From: a virus | DNA: 64,000 nt | Reading direction: 5' to 3' (one strand) | IMG/VR virus record: IMGVR_UViG_3300030002_000003 | Location: 1 to 64,000 of that record | In this document: positions 1,084 through 60,187 of the stretch, piece after piece | Position numbering within the stretch: position 1 is the stretch's first letter | Layout of the letters: every line of letters begins with the position of its first letter | The notes under the pieces: model-generated | What the model was told of the DNA's origin: nothing | What the model saw: only the letters and a program-made list of their open reading frames with translations | The model's database searches: none | Translations under genes and position numbers: made by a program

Positions 1084-4000
1084 ATGAGAGATACAACTAG
1101 CATTTTCCCGGCACAGAAGCTTAGTCTAAAGAAAAAGAACGCTGAATGGGGAGAAACGTGCGTTGACTATATCATAGGAATGGGGGAGACTGTACCATCT
1201 GGTTCAGATAGAACTTCATTCGAAGAGATGGCTGCATATTACGACCTATACAATAGCATATTTGATCCAAAAGATTTAAAGCATGTTACTGACCCATTTA
1301 ATCAAGAAGATGGATTTCCTGCTAATCCTCAGAGTATTAATATCATAAAATCTAAAATAGATCTACTTCTTGGAGAAGAAGCTAAGCATCCATTTAGATT
1401 TAGAGTTATTAGAACTAGCCAAGATGCAGCGTCTGACGTACAAGATAAGATGAAGCAAATGCTTATGGATTATACCATGGCTACTATTCTATCTGGAATG
1501 GATGAGAAATCTGCTCAAGAATACCAAGAGAAGCTACAGACCGGTGAATTAATGCCGCCTGAAAAAATAATGAACTATGTATCTAAAGGATATAAAGACA
1601 TTGCAGAGAACTCAGCATATCATACACTTAACTATCTAAAAGAAAAGCTTAATCTACCTCACGAATACTCTAAAGGATGGAAAGATGCTTTAATTGCTGG
1701 TAAAGAGGTATACTACACTGGAGTAGTTAACGGAGAGCCAAATATGGAACGCGTTAATCCACTATACTTCGGTCATGATCATTCACCTGATATGGAGTTC
1801 ATAGAAGATGGTGATTGGGCTGTTAGACGTATGAGAATGTCTTATACTGAGGTATACGATAGATTGTTTGATAAGATGACAGAGAAAGAGCTAGATAAGT
1901 TATTAGAACTTACTGGTCAGAATCCACAATCTGGTAGATATGGTAAAGATACTCCATCATCATTAGATTATGTCAACATGAACATGAAGACTGTAGCAGG
2001 TGGAGGTGATAGTACTATTAATCAACCAAATCAAGTTAATCTATGGCATGCGGTATGGAAATCATACAAAAAGATTGGATTCGTAAAAGTACTTGGCGAT
2101 AATGGAGAGCCTAACGAGATCATAGTAAGTGAAGACTATATGGTTATCGGCAACGAACTTAGCATCGAATGGAAATGGGTTATCGAAGTATGGGAAGGCT
2201 ATAGAATTGGAGAAGATATCTATATTGGGATAGCTCCACTAGAATATCAACACGTTTCTGCAGATAACCTTAATTCACAGAAATTACCTTATAGTGGCGT
2301 TATATATAATAACACTAATTCTACTCCTAAGTCATTAGTGGCTATAATGAAACCGCTTCAATACATGTACATAGTTATATGGTACAGACTTGAACTTGCG
2401 TTAGCTAGAGATAAAGGGAAGGTTATCAACATGGATATCACGCAGATACCTAAATCGATGAATATAGATCCAGCTAAATGGATGCATTATCTATCATCTG
2501 TAGGCGTTAACTTTATTAATCCATACGAAGAAGGTTGGGATATACCAGGACGTGAAGGTGGTAAGTGTTTTGGTCGCGGAACAAAGATATTAATGTTTGA
2601 CGGAAGTTTAAAAAACATTGAAGATGTGTCTGTTGGGAATTTAGTAATGGGTCCAGACTTGTCTCCTAGACGAGTACTTAATACGCACAATGGAGTCGAC
2701 AATATGTATAAGATAGTCCCTAGCTCTGGAGGAGATGTTCAAATAGTTAATAGCAGACACGATATATACTATGGTTTAAAAAATCATCATACGAACGAAG
2801 TATCTTTTATTACGTCCACCCCAGAAGAGCTGATGTTAAAGTTCAATAAAACCCCATCATGTAGAGATAGGCACTTTCTATATAGGAGAGGGGAGATAGA
2901 TATGTGGCGAAGTGGGAATTATAGAGATCATTTAATAGATCCGTACACTCTTGGACTATGGATTGGCGATGGAAGCACAAACAAAGCTCAGTTCGAAAGT
3001 ATGGATACGGAGATAATAAACTATCTAGAGGAATTTGCTATTCTTCATGGAATGAATACTAGAATAACTGCGAACATAAATAGTCGATCTCTTACTGTAA
3101 ATTTATCTGGAGGAAGTAGATCAAAATACAGGAACCTGCCTGGCAATTGGTTTTTGGATAGGCTTTCCGATCTGAACATAAGAGAGTATAAGGATATTCC
3201 AGAAGAGTATATATACACATCAAAGGAAAATAGGCTTTCAATCCTTGCTGGCCTTATAGATACCGATGGATGGTACGATAAAACAAAAAATAGATTTGGA
3301 TTCTGTCAAACAGAGTATAGAAAGCACATTGTTGATAAATTTGCATTTATTGCAAGAAGTTTAGGAATGAAGGTGTCTGTTAGAAAAAGAAAATGTACGC
3401 CATCGGAATTATGTAAAAACCATGCTGAATTTTGTTATGTTGCAAGTATACTAAGTGGATGCGAAAGAATTCCAACTAGAATAAAAAGAAAGCAAACTAA
3501 TCAAGTAAAATTCTTCGCAAGAGATGCTAATAGATCAATGTTTAATGTCGAGTATCATGGAGTTGATGAATATTTTGGATTTGAGTTGGATCAAGATCAT
3601 TTGTTCCTTCTTGGAGATTTGACAATAGCTCACAACTCAGCACAGTTCAATCAGATCACTGCTTTAGACTTAACTATGTCTAATGTTATTAACCAGTATA
3701 TTGGATTAATGAATAAGATAGAGGATATGATGGCTGAGATATCGGGCGTATCTAGACAACGTCAAGGCGAGATTTCTCCAAGCGAATTAGTTGGTAATGT
3801 TAATGCAGCTGTAAGTAACTCTGCAAGCATCACAGAACCTCTCTACTGGACTCATAATCAATGTAAGCGTAATTCATTAAGAATGTTATTGAATACCGCT
3901 AAGGAGGTCTGGAAGGACTCTAAGCGTGTTAGCTTGCAATACATAATGGATGATTCTACAAGAACATTCCTTAAGTTGGCAGATAACTTCTTCTATGAGG

Positions 4001-4710
4001 ACTACGATATATTTGTATCTGACTCAGTTAAGGATCTACAGGACTTGGAAGCTGTTAAATCACTTTATCAACCTGCCATGCAGAATGGTGCTACTATATT
4101 AGATATTGCTGAAATCATGACACTTGATAGTGTTAGTGCAATTAAATCTAAATTAGCTGGTATTGAAAAAGCTAGAGGAGAGAAAGAGCAGGCTGCCGCC
4201 GAACAAGAAAATCAACGTCAAATGCAATTGATTGATGCTCAAAATCAAGTTAAATCTCAAGCATTATCATTAGAGCAACAAAAACTCGAACTTGAAAAAT
4301 ATAAAATTGATACTGACAACCAGACTAAGATATATGTTGCTGAGCTTAGTGCTTATAGAGGACAACAAGATCTTGATGCTGATCAGAACGGTATTCCAGA
4401 TGTAATGGAAATTGCTGACATGTCATTGAAGCAAAGAGCTCAAGACTCTAACGAGATGGATAAAGCAATGCAGTTGTCTGTTAAACAGAAAGAAGCTGCT
4501 ATGAAACATAATTTAGAAGTTAGAAAGATTCAGCAACAGAAAGCTACTGAAGACGGTAAGCTTGCTTTGGATCATGATAAGCTAGAGCTGGAGGATAAAA
4601 AGATTAAGGCTGTGAAAGAACTTCAGGCTATGAAGGATCGGAACGCTATGGATAGAGAGAGATTAAAAGCTAAGACTGCAATGAAGAATAAGGTAACAGG
4701 AGAAAGATAA
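1084..4710 (+). CDS. Portal protein (intein-containing precursor; ~851 aa after splicing)
   Basis: crAss-type portal motifs (FPAQKL, NIIKSKIDLLLGEE, EVWEGYRIG, RLELALARDKGK, GVSRQRQG), coiled-coil C-terminus, and position between terL and scaffold/MCP. Confidence 0.9.
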   Translation: MRDTTSIFPAQKLSLKKKNAEWGETCVDYIIGMGETVPSGSDRTSFEEMAAYYDLYNSIFDPKDLKHVTDPFNQEDGFPANPQSINIIKSKIDLLLGEEAKHPFRFRVIRTSQDAASDVQDKMKQMLMDYTMATILSGMDEKSAQEYQEKLQTGELMPPEKIMNYVSKGYKDIAENSAYHTLNYLKEKLNLPHEYSKGWKDALIAGKEVYYTGVVNGEPNMERVNPLYFGHDHSPDMEFIEDGDWAVRRMRMSYTEVYDRLFDKMTEKELDKLLELTGQNPQSGRYGKDTPSSLDYVNMNMKTVAGGGDSTINQPNQVNLWHAVWKSYKKIGFVKVLGDNGEPNEIIVSEDYMVIGNELSIEWKWVIEVWEGYRIGEDIYIGIAPLEYQHVSADNLNSQKLPYSGVIYNNTNSTPKSLVAIMKPLQYMYIVIWYRLELALARDKGKVINMDITQIPKSMNIDPAKWMHYLSSVGVNFINPYEEGWDIPGREGGKCFGRGTKILMFDGSLKNIEDVSVGNLVMGPDLSPRRVLNTHNGVDNMYKIVPSSGGDVQIVNSRHDIYYGLKNHHTNEVSFITSTPEELMLKFNKTPSCRDRHFLYRRGEIDMWRSGNYRDHLIDPYTLGLWIGDGSTNKAQFESMDTEIINYLEEFAILHGMNTRITANINSRSLTVNLSGGSRSKYRNLPGNWFLDRLSDLNIREYKDIPEEYIYTSKENRLSILAGLIDTDGWYDKTKNRFGFCQTEYRKHIVDKFAFIARSLGMKVSVRKRKCTPSELCKNHAEFCYVASILSGCERIPTRIKRKQTNQVKFFARDANRSMFNVEYHGVDEYFGFELDQDHLFLLGDLTIAHNSAQFNQITALDLTMSNVINQYIGLMNKIEDMMAEISGVSRQRQGEISPSELVGNVNAAVSNSASITEPLYWTHNQCKRNSLRMLLNTAKEVWKDSKRVSLQYIMDDSTRTFLKLADNFFYEDYDIFVSDSVKDLQDLEAVKSLYQPAMQNGATILDIAEIMTLDSVSAIKSKLAGIEKARGEKEQAAAEQENQRQMQLIDAQNQVKSQALSLEQQKLELEKYKIDTDNQTKIYVAELSAYRGQQDLDADQNGIPDVMEIADMSLKQRAQDSNEMDKAMQLSVKQKEAAMKHNLEVRKIQQQKATEDGKLALDHDKLELEDKKIKAVKELQAMKDRNAMDRERLKAKTAMKNKVTGER
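2566..3636 (+). mobile_element. Intein with LAGLIDADG homing endonuclease (357 aa) in portal
   Basis: Block A begins CFGRGTKILMFDGSLKNIEDV; block B-like VNSRH; LAGLIDADG helices LGLWIGDG and LAGLIDTDG; blocks F/G YFGFELDQDHLFLLGDLTIAHN, followed by +1 Ser. Exteins rejoin as GREGGK|SAQFNQ. Confidence 0.95.
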
Positions 4711-7896: not shown

Positions 7897-8625
7897 ATGG
7901 CACTTACATTAGATGGAACTACCACATTGCCTGCAATGGGTGGCTCAGGATTAGGTTCAGGAGTTGGCTTAGGAGCAGTTGGTGGTGGTATCGCCGGTTT
8001 GCTTATAGGTGGATTACTTGGAAACAATGGTGGTGGACTATTCGGAGGAAACGGAAATAATAATGACGTTCAATTCGATGCTGTTCAAGGACAAATAAAC
8101 AATCTATCCGGACAAATTAGCAATGAGGCTTTATCTTCAGAGATAAGATCAGATGCTATCAGTCTAGCTGGAAGTATTGCTGGAGTGGGAACTCAGATTG
8201 GTCAATTAGCTACAGCTCAAGCTTCTGCTAATTTTACTACTCTAGACTCTATCAATGGCTTAGGAAGAGACATTACTGCACAATCAAATCAAAATGCTTT
8301 GCAGCAATTGAATAGCTTCAATAATCTATCTACTACCACATTGCAAGGATTCAATAGTCAGGCAATGCAAATGCAAAATGCTACAAATCAAATTATAGCA
8401 CAAGGTACTGCAAATGCAATGGCTATGGCCAACTGCTGTTGTGAAATAAAGAGTACTATCCTTGCCGACGGCAATTCTACTAGAGCATTGATAAATGACC
8501 TTAATGTTCAAAACTTAAGAGATCAATTAGCTGCGGCTAATAATAAAGTTTCCAACAATGAACAAAATCAGTACTTACTTAGTACTTTGATTGCTCATTT
8601 GAAACCAGCCGATGTTATTATCTAA
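7897..8625 (+). CDS. Gly-zipper/coiled-coil protein with CCC motif, function unknown
   Basis: Hydrophobic Gly-rich N-terminus (GLGSGVGLGAVGGGIAGLLIGGLLG), N/Q-rich heptads and 'ANCCCEIK'; recalled as a recurrent uncharacterised phage family. Confidence 0.75.
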   Translation: MALTLDGTTTLPAMGGSGLGSGVGLGAVGGGIAGLLIGGLLGNNGGGLFGGNGNNNDVQFDAVQGQINNLSGQISNEALSSEIRSDAISLAGSIAGVGTQIGQLATAQASANFTTLDSINGLGRDITAQSNQNALQQLNSFNNLSTTTLQGFNSQAMQMQNATNQIIAQGTANAMAMANCCCEIKSTILADGNSTRALINDLNVQNLRDQLAAANNKVSNNEQNQYLLSTLIAHLKPADVII

Positions 8626-9417: not shown

Positions 9418-9887
9418 CCAAATTTATAGAATTAATAGAGAAAGTATACCCATCTAAGAGTCAATCTAAACCAATGTCTGAAATATTCGAAGTTCTAGAC
9501 GATCACCTAGAAGCTATATGCATTAAAGACTTTACTACATATTCTGATGTTATAGAAGAGATGTGTATTATAGTGCATGGTCCATACTTCAATGTAGATA
9601 CTGCCACAAAAGCAGTCGCTGCGATGAAGAACGAAGATGGTACATTTGGACAAAAAGTTTCAATGGATGAAAGCAATATAGCTGCATCTGAACTTGGGAT
9701 CACATTTGATAAATTCACGGTATACGATTGGTACTATGTAATGAATATGATATATTCTGACTTTTGCGTAGTACTTGGACCTGATAATAAAGAAGTATAT
9801 AAACAATTAGCTAAGGCTTTTATAATGGATGCAGACGCCCCAGTTGGTAAAGCATTTCTTTATTACAAAGCAATGACTGATTTGTAG
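9414..9887 (+). CDS. Conserved hypothetical phage protein (MxNEDG..G / DWYYVMNMIYSD family)
   Basis: Motifs GPYF, MKNEDGTFG, YDWYYVMNMIYSD and AF..DADAP.GK..YY; recalled as a frequent neighbour of CCC-motif genes. Confidence 0.7.
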   Translation: MTKFIELIEKVYPSKSQSKPMSEIFEVLDDHLEAICIKDFTTYSDVIEEMCIIVHGPYFNVDTATKAVAAMKNEDGTFGQKVSMDESNIAASELGITFDKFTVYDWYYVMNMIYSDFCVVLGPDNKEVYKQLAKAFIMDADAPVGKAFLYYKAMTDL

Positions 9888-9894
9888 ATCACAT

Positions 9895-9929
9895 ATATAA
9901 GGCTAGCCCCTCAATCACTAGCCTTATAT
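9895..9929. terminator. Stem-loop closing the CCC cassette
   Basis: 12-bp perfect stem ATATAAGGCTAG/CTAGCCTTATAT with an 11-nt loop. Confidence 0.5.
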
Positions 9930-10021
9930 TGTACATATAGATTAGCTTCTATTTGTATAGCAAAACATTAAAACAATTAATTGCACTTACGTTATCGTAA
10001 AGGAGAATTATACATACCCAT

Positions 10022-10774
10022 ATGGAAATATTACTAAAACATAAAAGAGTAGACCCTTGGTCCGGCGTTACTAAATATAAAAGCTGTTCTGATTATATCG
10101 CACCATCATTAACTAGATCTGGTAATCATCACACTGGCTTAACTCCAGAAGATGAATCGAGATTAGAAAAGGCGCTAGGCCTTGGAGAAAAAACACTAGC
10201 ACAATATAGTTCGTACTGGAATACATTCACTGTTAAAATTACAAACAGAGAATTAGTACTTGATACAGATCGTCCTTGGGATGAACTTCAATATCTATTC
10301 CTTAAAAATCACCACAGAGTTTCAAATGGCATTAACGATATGAAACCAAAAGCTGATTATGTACTTATAAATAAAGACTCGGAAGCACAAGAATCCAACA
10401 GACTTAACAAACGTAAGAGAGACGCTATTAAAGAATTTGACAAGATGTCATTAGAGGATATGCGTAAATGCTTACGATTATTCGGATATAAAGCAGATAC
10501 CATGTCTGCCGAATTGGTTGAGAGTAAATTATTTGAACTAGTTGAGAAAGACCCTGAAAAATTCTTCTTGAAGTGGGTTAATAACAAGACAAAAAATACT
10601 GAGTTTACAATACAGGCTGCTATAGCTAAAAATATTATGCGTAAGAATAAAAATGCATATTATTACGGTACTGAGATAATTGGCACTTCTATAGATGACG
10701 CTGTTGCGTTCTTAGATAATAAAAACAATCAAGATTTGAAGATGACTATCCTCAATGAGCTTGAAGTAAAATAA
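10022..10774 (+). CDS. Conserved crAss-like capsid-module protein
   Basis: 'TGLTPEDESRLEKALGL', 'YWNTF' and C-terminal 'YYYGTEIIG..IDDAVAFL'; the type of gene normally found just downstream of crAss MCP. Confidence 0.65.
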   Translation: MEILLKHKRVDPWSGVTKYKSCSDYIAPSLTRSGNHHTGLTPEDESRLEKALGLGEKTLAQYSSYWNTFTVKITNRELVLDTDRPWDELQYLFLKNHHRVSNGINDMKPKADYVLINKDSEAQESNRLNKRKRDAIKEFDKMSLEDMRKCLRLFGYKADTMSAELVESKLFELVEKDPEKFFLKWVNNKTKNTEFTIQAAIAKNIMRKNKNAYYYGTEIIGTSIDDAVAFLDNKNNQDLKMTILNELEVK

Positions 10775-10777
10775 TAT

Positions 10778-11731
10778 ATGACATTAAAAGAGTTACATAG
10801 AATTTGGGATATAGAGCTAGACAAACTAAACGTGTCTAGCTATCCTTCATTTCTTCCAGAAGAAAAGGATTATTGGATTAACGCCTCTACACAAAGATTC
10901 ATCAAAACTAGGTACTCTGGACTAAATTCACATAGAGCTGGATTCCAGCAAAATCAAAAAAGGAGCGACGACTTAAGAACTGTTATTAAGACAGTGGAAT
11001 ATGACGTAACTCCATTTAATTATTCGAAAACGTATTTCATGGGAGATACTGTAGTTAGTAGAGGATTTTATTATAAATGCAAAATAGATGATATCTCTGG
11101 GGATATATTTGAGTCTCAATGGGATTCTATATCTACATCAGAAAATTCTGTCTATTTTCCATACCCTTTAGACTACATGATAACTGTTGGAGAGTTTGCA
11201 AAAGTTGGTACATTTGTTGCCACCGAACTTCCCGATAATAGATTCACTCCTGACAATATATTAATCCGCAGAAGAAATGATATTACTGAGGCTACTATAG
11301 AGAACTTGGATTCTAAGTTAAATAATTCAATAGCTCCTCATTTATTTCATAATAATACTGCTAAGCCATTGAGGGCATTTACTGACGACTCTATATCATT
11401 GTATACCGACAGTAACTATTATGTATCTAAATACGGGTTGACTTACATATTTCTACCTGAGAAGATAGATACATATAAGTATCCTACATTCAACCAGAGT
11501 CTTTCTTATGTAATTGGAGATAAGGTTCTATATAATGGACAACATTATGTATGTACACAGGACAGGCCAGGTGGAGCATTTAATATGGATTACTTCGAAG
11601 AAATTAAAATTATAACAATGCCAGAACATACTTGGGATGAAATACTAGTAGGAGCTGTTCGATTAGCATTGGAAAATATCTCTGAGTCAAGGTATCAAAC
11701 CTATGCAGCAGAGTCTCAGGCAACTGAGTAA
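10778..11731 (+). CDS. Tail ring/connector protein with two CBM5/12-like insertions
   Basis: 'ELDK...FLPEEKDYWIN...FIKTRY...FQQNQKRSDDLR' and C-terminal 'MPEHTWDEILVGAV' match crAss ring proteins; two F.....Y..GD.V...G..Y.C repeats. Confidence 0.7.
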   Translation: MTLKELHRIWDIELDKLNVSSYPSFLPEEKDYWINASTQRFIKTRYSGLNSHRAGFQQNQKRSDDLRTVIKTVEYDVTPFNYSKTYFMGDTVVSRGFYYKCKIDDISGDIFESQWDSISTSENSVYFPYPLDYMITVGEFAKVGTFVATELPDNRFTPDNILIRRRNDITEATIENLDSKLNNSIAPHLFHNNTAKPLRAFTDDSISLYTDSNYYVSKYGLTYIFLPEKIDTYKYPTFNQSLSYVIGDKVLYNGQHYVCTQDRPGGAFNMDYFEEIKIITMPEHTWDEILVGAVRLALENISESRYQTYAAESQATE

Positions 11732-52562: not shown

Positions 52563-53126
52563 CTATTCAGCATCTGTCTGAGTAGGGTATTTTTCTAGGT
52601 ACTCTTTTGCTATTGTTACTCCGTGTGACTCTATATAGTCCTTTTCGTCGATAATGTCATTTGATATATCTAGTATTCTGTTATCGTTTGAATGTATATT
52701 CATTGATAAGTATCCATTTGACTGTGCTGACCAAAAACTTGTCATTTTTGACTTTAGCTTTCCATCAATCTTATTACATCTTCCTTGTTTTATCAATTCG
52801 AATGATTTTCTGTATTCTATAGGTACTTTTAATGCATATATTGTATAGAACTTATTTTTAATTCTATAATTATACATAGAGGTAAAATTATCATTTTTTT
52901 CTATAAATGATAAATCAAACTCTTTTCTAATTCCTGAATCAAATACTAAAAATATATGCTCATCTAGCCATGGTTTATTTATATCACTTGAGAATCCATT
53001 TATAAATGAAGTCTCTTGTTTTGTAAAATTTCCTGGTCCTAGATATGATTGCCATTTCTCACTTTCTTTTGAAACTAGCGGCAGTAAAAATAGTAAAGAG
53101 TTATTTATTCTTTCACGTGTTATCAT
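52563..53126 (-). CDS. Hypothetical protein
   Basis: Likely start ATG at 53126 (MITRERINN...), overlapping the nuclease stop; 'FLLPL' and 'DINKPWLDEHIFLVF' motifs. Confidence 0.65.
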   Translation of the reverse strand: MITRERINNSLLFLLPLVSKESEKWQSYLGPGNFTKQETSFINGFSSDINKPWLDEHIFLVFDSGIRKEFDLSFIEKNDNFTSMYNYRIKNKFYTIYALKVPIEYRKSFELIKQGRCNKIDGKLKSKMTSFWSAQSNGYLSMNIHSNDNRILDISNDIIDEKDYIESHGVTIAKEYLEKYPTQTDAE

Positions 53127-54114
53127 AAAGTAATAGCTCTGCGCCATCACCTTCATAATACTCTTTACTGTAATCCCATAAATTATTGCTAAAATGCCAA
53201 TCCATTTGTGTTATTATTTGAGTTAGTTTGTCTATGTTTGTTATAATTGTGTCGTCATCTATTTCAAATACCTTGCATGTTGCTCCATCATTTTGTATTG
53301 CTACAATATATGTTGAGTGTTTATATTCCTCGATATCTAATTTAAGTTCATTTTTAAAATACCAATATATTGCCATCCAGTAATAGGCCATTTGAGTACC
53401 ATAACTATACTCTTTAAAAGAGTCTTTGAATTTACTAACACTTACTGTAGTTTTTAAATCTATTAGTGTTACCTTCTTTGAGTCATGATCAATTATCAAT
53501 CTATCTATTAATGATTTGCATGGTATTATAGAACCCTTTCTGACTTCTATTTCCCAATTTATATGAAATTCGTTATGAGTTATTACTCCTGGCGAATTGT
53601 CATTTTTGAAAAGTAATTCATTTGCTTTCTTGTGCAATTGAAGTTTCTCTTTTGTTAGTTTTAAGGCCGATAATTTAGCCCATGATATTGTCTCTTCCTC
53701 TGCGTTGCTTGACTTTAGCCATTTAATATAAGGCTTAAGTTTTAAGGCCATTTCTAGCGCTTTTGCGGCAGTTTCATCTTCGTTCTTACTAGTTGTTACA
53801 TAATTAGCTTTAAGTGCCTCTGTGGCCTTTAAAATGACCGTAGTGGCCTTGCTATTGACATAATCTTCACAGAACTTCTTCTGTTGTGCAGAAGTTGGTA
53901 TTGAGAAGTCTAGTATTTTGTATTTCTTCTTAAATTCAGCATGTTGTAATAGATACATATGAACCATTGTTCCATTCTTCATGGCTACTGATGGCTTGTC
54001 TGGTATCTTTCCGTCCATAATATCTTTTGCAAATCTTGGCGATTCTTCAAACGCTTTGATTAAACTATGATTTACTCTGGATCTGTCTGAATAATACTCT
54101 ATGTCGATTTTCAT
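53113..54114 (-). CDS. PD-(D/E)XK exonuclease (RecE/Exo VIII, DUF3799-like)
   Basis: YY.D...NHS.IK, GT.VH..LL, HNE, CKSLIDRL...LIDLKTT and Y..QMAYY. Confidence 0.8.
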   Translation of the reverse strand: MKIDIEYYSDRSRVNHSLIKAFEESPRFAKDIMDGKIPDKPSVAMKNGTMVHMYLLQHAEFKKKYKILDFSIPTSAQQKKFCEDYVNSKATTVILKATEALKANYVTTSKNEDETAAKALEMALKLKPYIKWLKSSNAEEETISWAKLSALKLTKEKLQLHKKANELLFKNDNSPGVITHNEFHINWEIEVRKGSIIPCKSLIDRLIIDHDSKKVTLIDLKTTVSVSKFKDSFKEYSYGTQMAYYWMAIYWYFKNELKLDIEEYKHSTYIVAIQNDGATCKVFEIDDDTIITNIDKLTQIITQMDWHFSNNLWDYSKEYYEGDGAELLLYDNT

Positions 54115-54133
54115 CTATTTTGCATTAAATATG

Positions 54134-54184
54134 AAAAAAAATAGCCAATTCATTGCCTCACGGTTTTGAATTGGCTATTTTTAT
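54134..54184. terminator. Bidirectional intrinsic terminator
   Basis: AAAAATAGCCAATTCA/TGAATTGGCTATTTTT inverted repeat with A- and T-tracts on both sides. Confidence 0.8.
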
Positions 54185-54199
54185 TTTGAATAAATTATT

Positions 54200-54415
54200 A
54201 ACTAATGGTGCTTTTACTCTCATACCTTGTTGCTTTCGATCCAACATGGATTTTCTAGCTCAATATTACCCTCGAACCTCTATATAGCTTCTTTGCTCAG
54301 CTTGTTTCCTTACTCACTTTCGAGATTAATTTAATCTCTATTGTTTTCTCTACTTTGCGGTAGCACTCTCCCTAATAATTTACTCGAGCTACCCTTAAAT
54401 CATTCCTCGCTCAAG
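54200..54415 (-). ncRNA. Candidate structured non-coding RNA
   Basis: No credible ORF; several GNRA-containing hairpins and a long-range helix (54256-54261 with 54386-54391); followed by the terminator. Confidence 0.4.
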
Positions 54416-54426
54416 AAATAATATTT

Positions 54427-55635
54427 TTATTTTTTAAAGTACGATCCTAATTCATCGCTCCATTCAGAATCTATTTCGTATATCCATACGTCATTTATCC
54501 TGTCATAAGCGAAAACTATTCCTGCATCTTCTATTAAACAGTTTTTGTATACCCCTGCGTCTTCTATGTATGCGTTATGTTGTTTTGCTGAGCAATAGAA
54601 CATTCCATCATACGTTGCAAAAATCAGTGTATCTTTTTCTCCACATATTGGACACTCTTCATCATCAAGAAATACTACATCTCCTCCAATTGGTTTAAAC
54701 ATTCTTGAATTTCCTATTTCTATTAATTTCGTTAAGTTTGTTTCTGCCATCTCAACTATTAGATTTGCTGCATCCATTGAGAAGAAGTTTCTTGTAATTG
54801 AATTAGTAAATGCTTTTTTAGCTTTCTTGGCTGTCGACCTTACTGTGTATGTAGGAACGACATGTTCATGTGCAAACTTAGTATTTCCATGAGTCGTAAA
54901 CATTTCTGACACGAATCTATAACATTTATCTAAGTCTTCCATGTCAATGGTTTCTGTGGAAGTATGAGGATTCCAATATCCTGCCGACATATTACATGCC
55001 GAAACCGGAAGGCCTCTTCTTTTTAACGTACCAACATCAGTAGACGTTCCTATCGCTTTTGAATATCCATATTTCAATCCTATTTCTAGCATTGTGTCTG
55101 TAAATTCTTGGCTTGCTACTGATATTCCATTTGTATGTGTGATAAAATCAGAGTTTCCCTTTCTGTCGCATTGCACGACAAAATTACAATCATTGAAAAA
55201 TGAAATATTTGAGGCATTTGATCCCTTACATCCACTTTCCTCAAATCTGAAAAATACTGATTTTACGTTATCAAAATCCTGTAATGCTTTTATACATGTA
55301 TAGATTCCTGATCGATCGTCCCCACCAATACCCGTTTGAACTACTTTAGCTCCCACATATTCATTTGAAGCCATTGCAAACAATGTATTTCCATGAACAT
55401 ATACCTTTCTATTCTTTTTAATCGAATGAACTGTATCTGTGTGAGCTACTATGCATTTGAAGCCATTTTCTCCTTTTCCTTTTGTTGCGTATATGTTTCC
55501 ATATGCATCTTTCTGGATTAGGATATTTTTATCTATAGAAGTTATTATGTTAATAATAAATTCATTGATTTCTTCGTCTGCATCGAAAGATGATTGCACT
55601 GAGACTAATTTTACTAATAATTTTGAATCTATCAT
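54427..55635 (-). CDS. M28/M20-family metallopeptidase with C-terminal zinc ribbon
   Basis: Co-catalytic metal motifs AHTDTV, GGDDRSG, EESG, QCDR and HT; CPICG...YC...H near the C-terminus. Confidence 0.85.
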   Translation of the reverse strand: MIDSKLLVKLVSVQSSFDADEEINEFIINIITSIDKNILIQKDAYGNIYATKGKGENGFKCIVAHTDTVHSIKKNRKVYVHGNTLFAMASNEYVGAKVVQTGIGGDDRSGIYTCIKALQDFDNVKSVFFRFEESGCKGSNASNISFFNDCNFVVQCDRKGNSDFITHTNGISVASQEFTDTMLEIGLKYGYSKAIGTSTDVGTLKRRGLPVSACNMSAGYWNPHTSTETIDMEDLDKCYRFVSEMFTTHGNTKFAHEHVVPTYTVRSTAKKAKKAFTNSITRNFFSMDAANLIVEMAETNLTKLIEIGNSRMFKPIGGDVVFLDDEECPICGEKDTLIFATYDGMFYCSAKQHNAYIEDAGVYKNCLIEDAGIVFAYDRINDVWIYEIDSEWSDELGSYFKK

Positions 55636-58241
55636 GCTATCATTTTTAATAATCTTTCGTATTCTTGTTCGGCCTTTGTGTTTGAAATGTCAATACAGTT
55701 AACTGGAATATTTAATGGCCAAGCTTTCAATTCTCCATAATTGGCGAATCTTTGGGTTGACATAAATTTCATTCTTTTTATTTCTCCATCAACTTCTACT
55801 GCTTTTATTTTTCCGTATCCAAATTCTCCACTCCAATTTCTTGACGCGTCTGAAATTGATAAAGATTGATCTAAATTAATTGGATTGTCTTTTAAGCTTT
55901 CTGAGCTTTTCATCAATTTTGTTAATTCTTTTACAAATTCCTTCTTCTCTTCTAATATTTTATAATTAGAACTGTCGCATTTTAGGATTGCCACATGTTT
56001 TAAACACTCTTTTGTTATTTCCAATTGAGAGTCTGTTGGATTTGCTGGTATCGCCAATGTTATTGGTTCTACATTGATCATTTTTATTGTTTTTGGATCG
56101 AAATATAAATTTTCTGTATCTTTTAGTGAATAATAATTACCAAATTCTACAAAATCGTTTTCCTCTCTTGCATTTTTAAATAAGAACGAGTTTCCTTGTT
56201 CTATCTTTTTTTCTTTTTGCAATGGAACTGCTTTTATATCTACTTTTAATCCTTCGTAGTATTTCGATTGCCTTTTTGTTGTTGCATCTATAATTATTGT
56301 GCATGCTCCCGCTCCCTGGAAATGACTATTTTTTCGTTCTATCTTAGTAGTGGCCTCTGGTTTAAAATGTCTTATATTTGAACACGTTAATATATTTGCT
56401 ATATAAGTTTTTTGTGCCTGATTATCTCCTAATGTATAAACATTCCCTTGGTTTTCTGCTAGAATTTCTCCATCTGAAGCTATTGTTATATGATTTGCAC
56501 ATATATAATTTTCCCCAAACTTAAAAGCGCTATCTTTTATTATTTTTCTGCATACTTGGCATATCTCTTCATCTCCTTTTGTTAGGTCTTTTTTAATTAC
56601 GAGTGGTATTCTATTGAAGCTTTTTGATGTATAATAAAGAACATCTTTCTTCATTATAGTTTCCATTGTTTTTGAATCCTCTGGGCGACCAATAAATAAT
56701 TTGTTGTTTTTTACATATAAGCTTGTGCTCATTGTATCAAAATATGGCGGATTTTGGTTTGTAGATTTTACTCCATTGAATTCAATTAGAAAATTAGATA
56801 ATAACTTCCCTGATTTCATTATAGATTTAGATACTCCTGACGAGTTTATAAAGAAGAAATTTTCGTTCTCGTTTACAAACGTAATCATTTTCTCTGCTGA
56901 TGCATCACAATTCGTGAACATTCTATCTACGTAGTGTTTTTCGGTTGATTTTTCATACCATACTACAGCTCTTCCCATTAGATATTTACCATCTCCTGTT
57001 GTTAGTGCTAGCATTTTTATGAAGTGATCGTTTTCTGCATAGAACTTAATTCTGTTCTTTACAGAAGCCCCTCTCATACATGAGTTGAATAATGTTCCTT
57101 CTTTCTCTCCTGATTTCGCGTACTGTAGTTCTGGATTATCTAACGCAGCCGTTCCTTTGTAGGAAGATACATTATATAATGCCACGATCTCATCACCTGA
57201 TACCAGTTTAACTGAAGCTTTTGATTTTGAATTTACTCTGTCTTCCTCTATTCTTATCAACGCTGATAAGTCTTCGAAGAATTTATTTGTTTCCGAAAAG
57301 TCTTTAACCACTTTCTCAATTTCTGAATCAGATAATTGTGCAATTTCTGACTTTATTCGCGTATTTCTTATTGAAACGAATCCACTTACTGGATTAACTG
57401 ATTCTATTTTTTCAATCTTTGTGTTTAACTCTACTGAAATTCTATCTCTATCAACCATATCAAATGTTTTAGATATAGATTGGTTTAACGATACTTCGTA
57501 TAAATCAAAAGCTGACGATATTATGATTGCTTCGTTTAAGATTGATTTTTCAGTTTTTGGAGTGTAAAATGGATGTGCCGTTCTTAGGACATTTTCCATG
57601 TTCTTCGCACTTTGCCAAAATTTATATCCTTTTCCGCTTGTGTCTTTTGTGAACAATTTTTGTAATGCCTCTCCCATATAATAGAAGGAGTATAGGAACG
57701 TATCTCTGTCGAAATCTTTTTGTTCATCTACAGATTCTAATGCACTCATTATCGTTCCTGATCTGTCAACGCATCCAGCAATTACTGCTAGTTTTCGTTT
57801 TGCTATATTTTTCTCCATTTGAGATCTATTTAGCGCAGTAAAAACCAATTTTCCTGCATCTTCTGAGTATTCACTTTTGAAGAAATTGAAGTTTCCTTCT
57901 TTTACGTATTCCGCCTTTACTCTCGTATTGGCTATGACGCGTTTCTTTAATTTGCAATTTTCTGCCTTTCCTACTAGGGCGCTGATTGATTTAGATTTTA
58001 CGATTTCAATTGATTTGCTTTCGCTGTCTTTTGTTTTATAAAATCTATCCAAATCTTCATTTCCTATAGTTCCGACACTTATTAATTTCTCAATTAGGTC
58101 GAAATATCTCGCAAGTATTGGGCTAGCTGCTCTGGCTTTGTTGAATATATTCCATGTCCATACATCTTTTTCTTCAAAGATTCTGTAATTGAATTCATTC
58201 TGAGCTTTTTTGTCTATCTGTCTTTGATCTTCTGTGATCAT
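55632..58241 (-). CDS. Large uncharacterised phage protein with SCM / GRA..W / DR motifs and zinc finger
   Basis: NSCMRG...FYAEN...MGRAVVW...YVDRMF...PPYFDT; CQVC...CANH; ATGA-coupled to both neighbours. Confidence 0.7.
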   Translation of the reverse strand: MITEDQRQIDKKAQNEFNYRIFEEKDVWTWNIFNKARAASPILARYFDLIEKLISVGTIGNEDLDRFYKTKDSESKSIEIVKSKSISALVGKAENCKLKKRVIANTRVKAEYVKEGNFNFFKSEYSEDAGKLVFTALNRSQMEKNIAKRKLAVIAGCVDRSGTIMSALESVDEQKDFDRDTFLYSFYYMGEALQKLFTKDTSGKGYKFWQSAKNMENVLRTAHPFYTPKTEKSILNEAIIISSAFDLYEVSLNQSISKTFDMVDRDRISVELNTKIEKIESVNPVSGFVSIRNTRIKSEIAQLSDSEIEKVVKDFSETNKFFEDLSALIRIEEDRVNSKSKASVKLVSGDEIVALYNVSSYKGTAALDNPELQYAKSGEKEGTLFNSCMRGASVKNRIKFYAENDHFIKMLALTTGDGKYLMGRAVVWYEKSTEKHYVDRMFTNCDASAEKMITFVNENENFFFINSSGVSKSIMKSGKLLSNFLIEFNGVKSTNQNPPYFDTMSTSLYVKNNKLFIGRPEDSKTMETIMKKDVLYYTSKSFNRIPLVIKKDLTKGDEEICQVCRKIIKDSAFKFGENYICANHITIASDGEILAENQGNVYTLGDNQAQKTYIANILTCSNIRHFKPEATTKIERKNSHFQGAGACTIIIDATTKRQSKYYEGLKVDIKAVPLQKEKKIEQGNSFLFKNAREENDFVEFGNYYSLKDTENLYFDPKTIKMINVEPITLAIPANPTDSQLEITKECLKHVAILKCDSSNYKILEEKKEFVKELTKLMKSSESLKDNPINLDQSLSISDASRNWSGEFGYGKIKAVEVDGEIKRMKFMSTQRFANYGELKAWPLNIPVNCIDISNTKAEQEYERLLKMIA

Positions 58242-59119
58242 AGGGGTGTGGTGTATTTGATAGTTCCGTCAATTTCTACTCCTCTAAAGGATACTTTACT
58301 TACTTTTTTGTCTTCTATAAGTTTCAGTAGTAGTTTGTTCGACGACTTCTTTTTGTTAGTATATGATAATTCTATCTTTGTTGCATTGTATTCAACATCG
58401 ATGGTATTTAAAATCTGAGTTTTCGCATTATCAGGATAAGCCATAGACTCTCTTGATGTATACTCTACTATTTCTTCTGTAAAGATTTCATATGGATCTA
58501 CATAAAAACATTGACAAGTATTTAACTTGCTTGCTCCTTCTACATATCTTCCATCACTTGGATAGAACGCTGTCATTGCTCTATTTTTTGCTCCAGCTAA
58601 TACGAAATCTATTATTTCCTTTTTGTTAGCATCTGTAGCTATCATTGTTTTCTGCATGCTTACTGGAACGTCTGGATTCGTTATTGCGATTCCTGCTAAC
58701 ATTCCCTTTGTCATTAAAAATCTGTGTTTAAACATAGTATCCTTTGATATTAACATAAAAATGTCTTCTACGATTATTTCACAGTTTGGCATATTTACTG
58801 CTGATACTGTTGCCCGTGCTAATTTTGTTTCGAAATCGAAATCCAGTTCATCATCTACTCCTATCAATACATCCTTATCTACTATCTTTCCAAATGCTAT
58901 ACATTTGCAATCTAGTAGTCTGTCAGTAAGTGGAGCGAATGTTTCTTGAAATTCTTCATTTCTATATGCTATTCCGTTTAAGTTACATACCTTTCCATTC
59001 ATTAATATGCATGGAATTCCAGGCTTAACTTCAGAAATATGAAACTCCGTGTTCTTTGGAAGCATATCTATTGTGTTTATGCCAGTCTGTACCGGCGGAT
59101 TCATTTTTTTGAAATTCAT
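58238..59119 (-). CDS. Degenerate ATP-dependent DNA ligase-like protein (catalytic motifs lost)
   Basis: SEVKPGIPC aligns by eye to S.KLDG.RC; 'NLNGIAYRNEEFQE', 'DGRYVEG' and an OB-like C-terminus follow phage ligase spacing. Confidence 0.55.
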   Translation of the reverse strand: MNFKKMNPPVQTGINTIDMLPKNTEFHISEVKPGIPCILMNGKVCNLNGIAYRNEEFQETFAPLTDRLLDCKCIAFGKIVDKDVLIGVDDELDFDFETKLARATVSAVNMPNCEIIVEDIFMLISKDTMFKHRFLMTKGMLAGIAITNPDVPVSMQKTMIATDANKKEIIDFVLAGAKNRAMTAFYPSDGRYVEGASKLNTCQCFYVDPYEIFTEEIVEYTSRESMAYPDNAKTQILNTIDVEYNATKIELSYTNKKKSSNKLLLKLIEDKKVSKVSFRGVEIDGTIKYTTPL

Positions 59120-59138
59120 GTTTTCTTGTTTTTAATTG

Positions 59139-59210
59139 TCGGCTAAGCGAGATTTGAACTCGCATACTATCTATTTCTAGATCTCCATGTACCAATGTGG
59201 GCATTAGCCT
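59139..59210 (-). ncRNA. tRNA-like cloverleaf RNA lacking an anticodon (GAAA tetraloop)
   Basis: Minus strand reads AGGCTAA TG CCCA CATTGGTACA TGGA G ATCTA GAAA TAGAT AGTAT GCGAG TTCAAAT CTCGC TTAGCCG A. Confidence 0.8.
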
Positions 59211-59218
59211 TCCGTTAT

Positions 59219-60187
59219 TTAATTAATCATTTGTTCAAAGATATTTGCTGCTTTCGCATATCCTACCTTTTTCACTAAATCACTAATATCTTTTGTTTTG
59301 TACTTCTTATTGATAAAAACGAAGTCTAGATTATACTCTTTTGCTAGTTTTCTAGTAAATTGCATTCCAGTTTTGTCTCTATCATAAAATATTACAATTC
59401 TTTTGAATCTCCCTTTTATAGTGTCTATTGCGATTGTAGATATGATTGCGCTTTCGCTCGGTGGAGCTATTGCCTCATACCCCATTTCATGCAGTGTCAT
59501 AACATCCTTTAAACTTTTGGTGATTATTAATAGATCGCCATTTTCTGACAATTGTTCATACCCCTGAATATCTAAATTGCTTAAGTTTCCTCGCCATTTG
59601 TCAAATTTCTTTGCTAATGGCCTGTATATCTTAAATTTGTTAAACACTTTATAACTGTAAATTGGATTGTCTGATTCGTATTTGCCTTTAACTTCTCCAT
59701 TTACTAGAAATCTAGATAGAGCATTTACATTGTACTCTTCTAAAGTTTCTTTAGATATACCAAACTGTTTCCAGAATAGTAAATCTTTTTCACTAAATGG
59801 TCTTCTAACTACTTTTATCTCAGTTGGCCTACTTGCGAATGTTCGTCTAGTTACCCGTATCTGAATTTGGTCTAGATTCATTTCCTTTTGGATTTCCTCT
59901 AAAGTTTCTTTGTATGTTGTGTAACCTCTTAGTTTCTTTACAAACTTAAATACGCTTCCGCATTCTCCATTTGCAAGATCTTTATATAGTAAAGTTCCGT
60001 CTCTATTGCTCACAAATATTCCAAATGAGGGACTTGGATCTTCCCTCAATGGACTATTATATGATTTCCCAATTTTAAAATCTCCAATGTACCGTTTAAA
60101 AATATCGTATTCCGATACCTTGTCCAATATATCCGAAAATTCTAATCGCTTGGGCTGCGTTTCTAATATAATGTCTGTGTTAAACAT
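59219..60187 (-). CDS. DNA primase (DnaG/TOPRIM, crAss type)
   Basis: SPLREDPSPSF...YKD...GECG N-terminal domain; KIYRP, IQGYEQL, ITKSLKDVM, FYDRDKTG and KDISD. Confidence 0.88.
   Translation of the reverse strand: MFNTDIILETQPKRLEFSDILDKVSEYDIFKRYIGDFKIGKSYNSPLREDPSPSFGIFVSNRDGTLLYKDLANGECGSVFKFVKKLRGYTTYKETLEEIQKEMNLDQIQIRVTRRTFASRPTEIKVVRRPFSEKDLLFWKQFGISKETLEEYNVNALSRFLVNGEVKGKYESDNPIYSYKVFNKFKIYRPLAKKFDKWRGNLSNLDIQGYEQLSENGDLLIITKSLKDVMTLHEMGYEAIAPPSESAIISTIAIDTIKGRFKRIVIFYDRDKTGMQFTRKLAKEYNLDFVFINKKYKTKDISDLVKKVGYAKAANIFEQMIN

Follow-up and report, generated by a model that had tools for sequence, protein, structure and literature searches.

The closest described relatives of the system analyzed here are pairs of adjacent phage genes, one encoding a protein with an invariant Ser-Cys-Met (SCM) motif and the other a peptidase of PHROG 4191. 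In cultured phages, such pairs are gp49/gp50 of Cellulophaga phage Calle_1 (E 6e-81 and 1e-63) and, with weaker similarity (profile E 1e-5), gp12 (SCM-like) and gp13 (peptidase) of Klebsiella phage fHeKpn01 and their counterparts in other KP34-like phages. The two genes are co-oriented and often overlapping, the SCM motif and the metal ligands are retained, and in the KP34-like phages the pair is located near the primase and helicase genes; no published function or functional study of the pair was found in literature searches. All these features recur in a 5-kb cassette of a crAss-like gut phage, the IMG/VR virus record IMGVR_UViG_3300030002_000003, of which the stretch analyzed (the window) comprises the first 64 kb (positions 1 to 64,000) of 93,235 bp; CheckV rates completeness at 100%. 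This cassette differs from the other pairs in the presence of an upstream gene for a ligase-fold protein, in the size of the SCM protein (869 aa vs ~400-600 aa), which is extended by clade-specific N- and C-terminal regions, in a Cys-rich tail of the peptidase, and in the RNA elements that flank the genes.

The three genes are all encoded on the minus strand, between a DnaG-type primase gene upstream (59219-60187) and a PD-(D/E)XK, exonuclease VIII-like gene downstream (53113-54114). They encode, in this order, the ligase-fold protein P0001 (58238-59119), the SCM protein P0002 (55632-58241) and the peptidase P0003 (54427-55635), and both gene-gene junctions are 4-nt ATGA overlaps. An earlier interpretation of this DNA made without database searches (the sequence-only reading) had proposed precisely such an arrangement of three ATGA-coupled genes between primase and exonuclease, and the open reading frames (ORFs) and overlaps are indeed present. 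The order primase, ligase-like protein, SCM protein, peptidase, exonuclease is kept in the IMG/VR relatives L001-L005. The three genes behave as a unit and are translationally coupled.

The SCM/peptidase pair is found far beyond this clade. Linkage was assessed in 80 metagenome loci that were fetched by the peptidase alone and searched with the profile of each family. Among the 75 loci with usable upstream DNA, an SCM-domain gene is located directly upstream of the peptidase gene in 59 (gap of -37 to +157 nt), directly downstream in one and elsewhere in the locus in four; none was detected in 11. The pair is also present in the IMG/VR loci L012 and L013, and a structure search of viral models with P0002 retrieved uncharacterized proteins of phages KpV48, Nobby, Buco and P087. 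These structural matches span KP34-like, Pectobacterium, Shigella and Lactococcus phages, and the peptidase is likewise encoded by those phages or by relatives of them. The linkage in the metagenome loci, the cultured phages and the structural matches together identify the pair as a robust unit. It is a widespread, strongly conserved phage module. The ligase-like gene is missing from most of the loci that contain the pair.

Several SCM paralogues are encoded on the 636-kb contig WNFQ01000001.1 (L026, L045) and on LR756501-LR756504, some of them distant from the peptidase gene. In Calle_1, the pair adjoins genes for tRNA-Glu(TTC), tmRNA and RtcB. The GenBank record of fHeKpn01 describes gp12, gp13 and the small gp14 as virion-associated by liquid chromatography-tandem mass spectrometry (LC-MS/MS), though they are encoded in the early/replication region. 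Among the atlas and BFVD matches, the SCM family is represented in viruses only. The virus-confined distribution, the multiple paralogues on megaphage contigs and the LC-MS/MS annotation would all fit effectors, packaged in the virion or produced very early, by which host proteins are modified at entry, in a take-over or counter-defence role, with the RNAs being unrelated neighbors. We consider such a role unlikely, given that the genes in the window belong to the replication block, on the strand opposite to the structural and cargo genes, and that the LC-MS/MS statement is an unverified annotation in the record of a distant homologue.

P0002 (55632..58241) consists of three parts, a clade-specific one at the N-terminus, a GNAT-like domain in the center and, at the C-terminus, a region with a CxxC...CxxH zinc ribbon, as delineated from its homologues and from an AlphaFold2 (AF2) model with a pLDDT of 81. 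Full-length homologues number ~12 in a search of 90%-identity protein clusters. A profile search of 1.8 billion representatives yields ~1,460 proteins at E<=1e-3 (50%-identity clusters), which have in common profile positions ~330-510 only, the N- and C-terminal thirds being specific to this clade. The shared core (residues ~340-540; 56622..57224, minus strand) is supported by the profile search, VIA, Foldseek and a set of invariant residues, namely S387-C388-M389-R390, R424, R440 and D502, in alignments of 33 and 90 sequences; the SCM motif with its cysteine, noted in the sequence-only reading, is confirmed. In none of the 123 members scanned (33 + 90) does a Pfam domain cover the core or a Pfam GNAT model match, and PHROGs and NCBIfam contain no match to the core in the members sampled. 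An IMG/VR scan with P0002 as a single protein returned nothing.

The best VIA match of the core has a Z of 7.7 (116 residues, rmsd 3.7), all 50 of the 50 matches listed belong to the GNAT superfamily, and Foldseek assigns a probability of 0.97 (E 0.013) to the similarity with GNAT. The RimI-type acetyltransferases, Gcn5, FemA and the C-terminal domain of MprF share the predicted fold with residues ~340-540 of P0002 (Z 5.7-7.7); FemA (Z 6.1) and MprF (Z 5.7, retrieved by Foldseek as well) rank below many acetyltransferases. A GNAT-like fold can accordingly be predicted for the core with moderate confidence. One feature that distinguishes P0002 from the GNAT enzymes is the invariant cysteine in the alpha1-alpha2 region which, to our knowledge, is unusual for GNATs. 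A cysteine acyl-enzyme has been discussed for the MYST acetyltransferases. A relationship of P0002 to PcfJ, considered on the strength of a 0.78 atlas row, was dropped as no PcfJ match was detected in the 123 members.

P0003 (402 aa; 54427..55635, minus strand) is a di-zinc hydrolase of clan MH (M20/M28/M42-like) that ends in a Cys-rich C-terminal tail. It matches phrog_4191 ('peptidase') at E 9e-49, scores just below the Pfam cut-offs for M42 (23.0 vs 23.2 bits) and M28 (18.4 vs 21.3 bits), and yields only weak NCBIfam matches, to PepT, ArgE and DapE. The metal-binding and catalytic residues H65, D106/D107, E132-E133, D157 and H224, which follow each other in the clan-MH order, are invariant in seven sequences, down to 35% identity, so that the metallopeptidase identity proposed earlier holds. 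In one locus (L077:8001-9515), located on a 94-kb tRNA-rich contig, three collinear ORFs make up the peptidase homologue, possibly owing to stop-codon reassignment or because the gene is broken.

P0001 (293 aa; 58238..59119, minus strand) is predicted to adopt the fold of a minimal ATP-dependent DNA ligase, with nucleotidyltransferase and OB domains. It has no match in Pfam, PHROGs or NCBIfam, no ligase from the PDB is found by sequence at E<=10, and close homologues are a handful only. The AF2 model built from eight sequences (pLDDT 81.7) matches the African swine fever virus and Chlorella-virus ligases in Foldseek at E 1e-12, and VIA yields a Z of 16.4 across residues 1-293, with 237-263 residues aligned in the ligase matches. 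Like the Chlorella virus ligase, Lig E, the T7 and T4 ligases and inactive ligase-fold scaffolds, P0001 has the two domains, here over the whole of its length. Unlike the minimal ATP-dependent DNA ligases, it shows no similarity at the sequence level, lacks KxDG and is encoded by a gene coupled to non-ligase partners. The strand-loop-strand of residues 26-40 reads EVKPGIPC, that is, K-P-G where ligases carry KxDG, with no Asp, and the column of the motif I lysine is occupied by K, K, K, K, K, R, K and E in the eight sequences (R in L002, E in L003). Given the ligase fold and a motif I lysine that is not conserved, the pseudo-ligase interpretation stands, and P0001 is probably inactive catalytically, the equivalence of the motif I positions being taken from the topology of the model and not from a superposition. 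Genes of this type are restricted to the crAss-like clade under study and to L017 and L019, in which a weakly similar gene immediately precedes the SCM gene. The presence of a ligase-fold gene in the trio hints at a target linked to nucleic acids.

The genomic setting of the cassette is best seen in comparison with CrAssphage cr118_1 (Crassvirales, Suoliviridae, Besingivirus), its nearest relative among annotated crAss phages, the major capsid protein of which is 77% identical to its homologue in this genome. The replication block of the window, on the minus strand, comprises genes for a DnaB-like helicase, a 179-aa ORF, a Sak4-like ATPase, a 195-aa ORF and the DnaG-type primase, followed by the cassette and the exonuclease. 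Orthologues of the Sak4-like ATPase, gp22, primase, exonuclease and gp16 are found in cr118_1 in the same order (E 5e-113, 1e-95 and 1e-87 for the Sak4-like ATPase, primase and exonuclease, respectively). Between primase and exonuclease, cr118_1 encodes an ATPase, a Holliday-junction resolvase and a small ORF, closely packed and without non-coding RNA; searches of cr118_1 with the profiles of all three trio genes gave no match. In L006, a resolvase homologue is located between the peptidase and exonuclease genes, in the position that is taken by the 3' RNA in the window. The alternative content of the interval in cr118_1 and the resolvase in L006 indicate that the primase-exonuclease interval is a cargo slot. 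The 5-kb stretch is one alternative filling of this slot and replaceable cargo relative to cr118_1. A megablast search of the cassette region against phage records gave no match.

This location could also mean that the cassette is an accessory of replication, repair or recombination, in which the ligase-fold protein would serve as a nick or end scaffold (compare the ligase-like domain of the poxvirus polymerase cofactor), P0002 and the peptidase would process a replication protein, and the cassette as a whole would functionally replace the ATPase and Holliday-junction resolvase of the cr118_1 slot. Apart from the position inside the replication block and the recombination genes in the same slot of cr118_1, several observations are compatible with such a role. 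The KP34-like pair is located just upstream of the primase, helicase and polymerase genes, and the ligase-fold matches of P0001 include a chain of the monkeypox polymerase holoenzyme (8wpf_B, Z 10.3). Furthermore, no family A or B DNA polymerase was detected in this genome (G000; window, L010 and L011) or in G001, which holds L005; both genomes are rated 100% complete, and both encode the primase, DnaB-like helicase, Sak4-like ATPase and exonuclease. In contrast, the DNA polymerase of cr118_1 is split and encoded upstream of the helicase, that is, outside this slot. Moreover, the conserved core of P0002 is GNAT-like and has no nucleic-acid enzyme fold, and the pair coexists with PolA in G003, G004 and fHeKpn01 and hence does not replace a polymerase. 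On balance, a replication-accessory function appears improbable. The more specific notion that P0002 itself is the missing DNA polymerase is rejected on account of the GNAT-like core, the coexistence of the pair with PolA and the different position of the polymerase in cr118_1.

Upstream of the trio, the 99-nt gap between the primase and the ligase-like gene is occupied, 16-20 nt ahead of the start codon, by a cloverleaf derived from tRNA, in which a GAAA tetraloop stands where the anticodon loop would be (59136..59210, minus strand), identified by comparison with Rfam, by folding and by its counterpart in L002. Positions 59139-59210(-) align end to end with the Rfam tRNA model RF00005 at 27.0 bits (E 0.018 in a 5.5-kb search). 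This score is below the Rfam gathering score of 29, so that a scan of Rfam at the gathering threshold returns no match; at E<=10, the sub-threshold tRNA is the only family matched by the region. ARAGORN reports no tRNA genes in the window, this element included. The cloverleaf fold has a z of -2.4, with none of 200 shuffles equally good. The acceptor stem has 6 of 7 bp, the T arm is canonical (GCGAG-TTCAAAT-CTCGC, with a 5-bp stem) and the 3' tail reads A-CAA; irregularities affect the D arm, and A and G are mismatched at position 1:72. The anticodon-less tRNA described in the sequence-only reading is therefore real as a structure.

The syntenic gap of L002, the trio proteins of which are ~25-30% identical to those of the window, contains a counterpart (L002:6879-6948) with a complete acceptor stem (7/7), a D stem of 4 bp whose loop contains GG, a 5-bp stem that ends in a GTAA loop, a complete T stem (5/5) in a canonical T arm with the loop TTCGAAT, and the same ACAA tail. 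In both copies, accordingly, a 4-nt GNRA loop replaces the 7-nt anticodon loop. Twelve of the 17 pairs in the acceptor, 'anticodon' and T stems are changed on both sides between the two copies, with no one-sided change and no pair broken in L002; MAFFT misaligned the copies and the pairs were tallied by script, the comparison being one of two sequences. Neither RNA alignment includes the nearest relatives (P0004-P0007 and P0015-P0017, 49-92% identical), and both are hence shallow. In L001, the primase and ligase-like genes overlap, leaving no room for the element; the 57-nt gap of L003 is unstructured, and neither this gap nor the 145-nt gap of L005 contains a cloverleaf. A structure-constrained scan of ~1 Mb of related loci revealed no further convincing copy beyond the window and L002, and a relaxed cloverleaf scan is uninformative, with ~132 matches expected from chance. 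The element thus appears to be under selection where it is present, and yet dispensable for the three genes.

The acceptor/T-arm minihelix is the part of a tRNA that is recognized by RNase P, RNase Z and the CCA-adding enzyme. Because this part is kept, a role in transcript processing or stabilization is the most economical reading of the element. The MALAT1 mascRNA, the species 1 and 2 RNAs of phage T4 and the tRNA-like domain of the bacterial Y RNA YrlA are mimics of the acceptor and T arms without decoding capacity. The phage element shares with these RNAs the likely recognition by RNase P, RNase Z or the CCA-adding enzyme. It is distinct from them in having a full cloverleaf with a GNRA tetraloop on a 5-bp 'anticodon' stem and in being located inside a phage operon. 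No functional study of such an anticodon-less tRNA mimic was found in literature searches.

A candidate copy at L003:2806-2869 does not fold (z +0.8) and was rejected. Short tRNA-like units without a normal anticodon arm, with the T arm CGCAG-TTCGATT-CTGCG, are present ~3 kb upstream of the pair on two large-phage contigs (L050:4921-4983 and L073:5120-5182) and are a lead only, because the permissive scan that retrieved them yields many chance matches. In P0016, an 87%-identical relative, an N-terminal extension introduced by the ORF caller (…GSIPIRLA…) is compatible with a T loop and the same acceptor strand, a correspondence that is unconfirmed and was seen in the protein sequence only.

At the other end of the cassette, a 290-nt gap follows the peptidase gene, and 301 nt on the transcribed strand, 54130-54430(-), fold at -70.8 kcal/mol (z -4.1, with none of 100 shuffles as good). 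Three parts can be distinguished. The 5' motif (54378..54425, minus strand; nhmmer and RNAalifold) is a 10-bp hairpin with a GAGC loop region that pairs with GCTC 9 nt downstream, forming either an H-type pseudoknot or an alternative helix. Next comes a multi-branched domain (54188..54385, minus strand; minimum free energy (MFE) and centroid structures agree) with a 14-bp long-range closing helix and several GNRA-capped hairpins. The last part is a terminator-like hairpin of 16 bp, two of which form an inner stem, with U8 after it (54134..54182, minus strand; MFE and centroid). The downstream structured segment with a strong terminator, as suggested by the sequence-only reading, is thus borne out. 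A simple scanner for consensus terminators did not list the 16-bp hairpin with U8, as we think because the loop exceeds its 8-nt limit.

With a profile of five lineages, nhmmer finds the 5' motif at E 2e-7 in the window and at 5e-8 to 3e-6 in L014, L002, L003 and L005, and nowhere else in ~1 Mb of other loci or in the rest of the genome. The proteins of these five lineages are just 25-54% identical. The motif directly or shortly follows the peptidase gene in L014, L003 and L005, and comes ~650 nt after it in L002, where extra sequence (L002:11403-12050) separates the gene from the motif. The stems of the hairpin differ between lineages and stay paired (ATTATTTCTT, TACTAG, ATACCTC, AATACTTT), and the G-U pairs work on the transcribed strand only. 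The helix between the loop and the downstream segment occurs in L003 as a compensated GATC/GATC variant; 90% of its cells are paired vs 20-43% for slid positions, and two pairs are changed on both sides. A shuffle control with the five sequences is not decisive, as 32 of 500 shuffles reach the observed pairing. The body of the segment shows no primary-sequence conservation across lineages, and its alignment gives no consensus beyond the GAGC/GCTC helix, which is also picked by RNAalifold. The layout of the body in L001 and L003 is nevertheless that of the window, with a 12-13-bp closing helix, a multi-branch domain and a U run (z -2.9 and -2.4). Restriction of the motif to five lineages suggests a clade-specific RNA of the locus rather than a general partner of the enzyme pair, and this confinement, together with the distance to the peptidase gene in L002, speaks against the 3' RNA as an integral part of a five-component system. 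Both RNA elements appear to be maintained by compensatory change, each in a limited part of the clade.

Both RNAs could, in principle, be non-functional, with the tRNA-like element as a tRNA pseudogene in decay and the 3' stretch as a spacer with a terminator. The tRNA score under the Rfam threshold, the A1-G72 mismatch and irregular D arm in the window, the lack of the element in three sister lineages and the unconserved body of the 3' segment are all as expected of such remnants. The 12 doubly compensated pairs of the cloverleaf, with none broken in L002 and with a GNRA loop and the same tail in both copies, are hard to square with a decaying pseudogene. Likewise, the 5' motif of the 3' RNA is kept in five lineages despite the low identity of their proteins, with G-U pairs suited to the transcribed strand only, and the segment folds at z -2.4 to -4.1 in three lineages. 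We therefore regard the absence of function as quite unlikely.

The sequence-only reading had combined all five components in a single system. What remains of this proposal is the coupled, syntenic trio of L001-L005 and the pair linked across distant phages, whereas the two RNAs and the ligase-like gene come apart from these. Co-occurrence had been its own test, and the components were found to assort independently, with the tRNA mimic present in the window and L002 only; nothing computed here ties either RNA to the proteins or bears on the anti-defence or ribonucleoprotein role that had been suggested. In an integrated RNA-protein system, the SCM protein would be a Fem/MprF/L,F-transferase-like enzyme, the charged mimic its donor or scaffold, the peptidase an editing enzyme and the ligase-fold protein a holder of the RNA 3' end. 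The occurrence of FemA and MprF among the GNAT-fold matches, the acceptor/T-arm minihelix and identical A-CAA tail kept in two lineages, the position of the mimic directly before the first gene of the trio and the tRNA-Glu, tmRNA and RtcB genes around the Calle_1 pair would all be in line with this scheme. However, the mimic is missing in L001, L003 and L005, all of which have the three genes, and was not found beside the pair in other loci; the acceptor stems of the two copies have no common identity element; and ordinary acetyltransferases score at least as high as Fem and MprF. An integrated system is therefore highly unlikely. A hitherto unknown RNA-dependent modification machine, in which the mimic would be charged or CCA-tagged by the host and used by the SCM protein as a donor or guide while the dead ligase grips the RNA or an end and the hydrolase edits the product, seems similarly improbable; if true, it would make the SCM/peptidase pair in general a tRNA-linked transferase system of phages.

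The proposed five-part system is supported in part only and resolves into three layers: a robust, widespread and uncharacterized enzyme pair, a clade-restricted dead-ligase subunit and two structured RNAs that are specific to the locus and have no proven link to the enzymes. Our preferred explanation, in which we place about half of our confidence, is that of a transferase/hydrolase pair with a nucleic-acid-binding adaptor and RNA punctuation, carried in a replaceable cargo cassette of crAss (Suoliviridae-like) phages. The SCM enzyme would transfer an acyl, aminoacyl or peptidyl group, via its cysteine in a GNAT-type cleft, to a protein or a small molecule, and the partner hydrolase would trim or remove the transferred group or prepare the substrate. 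The dead-ligase subunit may be an adaptor that binds nucleic-acid ends or nicks and localizes the enzymes. The tRNA-shaped, non-decoding RNA would most likely be an RNase P/RNase Z-type processing or stabilizing signal between the primase and cassette messages, and the 3' RNA could be a clade-specific structured 3' untranslated region or a small RNA that ends the transcript. Both RNAs would then be accessories of the locus and not obligate partners of the enzymes.

Several observations weigh against this explanation. The similarity of P0002 to GNATs is moderate (Z < 8), the assignment of its fold rests on residues ~340-540, and the beta4-alpha3 loop (TNCDASAEK), inspected by eye, lacks the Q/RxxGxG/A motif that binds the pyrophosphate of acetyl-CoA. 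No member of the SCM family has a known substrate, donor or activity. The 11 of 75 peptidase loci that lack an SCM gene imply that the hydrolase can stand alone, and the virion annotation in fHeKpn01 hints at an injected effector as opposed to an intracellular, replication-linked role. As for the RNA, the processing by RNase P and RNase Z is something that we infer, and the D arm and position 1:72 of the window copy depart from those of a regular tRNA.

Whichever function is performed, the SCM family, with its ~1,460 clusters, has no entry in Pfam, PHROGs or NCBIfam and is almost always tied to its own zinc hydrolase. The pair is present in crAss-like gut phages, in megaphages and in therapy-relevant Klebsiella phages, ranks among the larger phage enzyme modules that lack an explanation, and occurs in phages for which cultured hosts exist. 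To this module, the present locus adds an expanded three-protein form with an apparently inactivated ligase fold and a case of modular exchange, in that a sister crAss phage has recombination genes in place of the cassette. The anticodon-less cloverleaf, apparently kept by compensatory evolution, is a candidate, in a DNA phage, for tRNA-style punctuation of transcripts or for tRNA mimicry.

Outside the cassette, the genome encodes two very large proteins of 4,522 and 2,111 aa. The portal protein (window 1084-4710, plus strand) contains an intein with Hint and LAGLIDADG homing endonuclease domains (residues ~490-860), and the large terminase (L011:6113-9235, plus strand) contains a LAGLIDADG insertion. 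Downstream of the replication block, the minus strand of L010 (genome 72.1-75.2 kb) carries, at 8162-8236, 9826-10143 and 11126-11197, genes for tRNA-Arg(TCT), tRNA-Glu(TTC) and a circularly permuted tmRNA; the tmRNA matches the Rfam family tmRNA_permuted at 55.7 bits.

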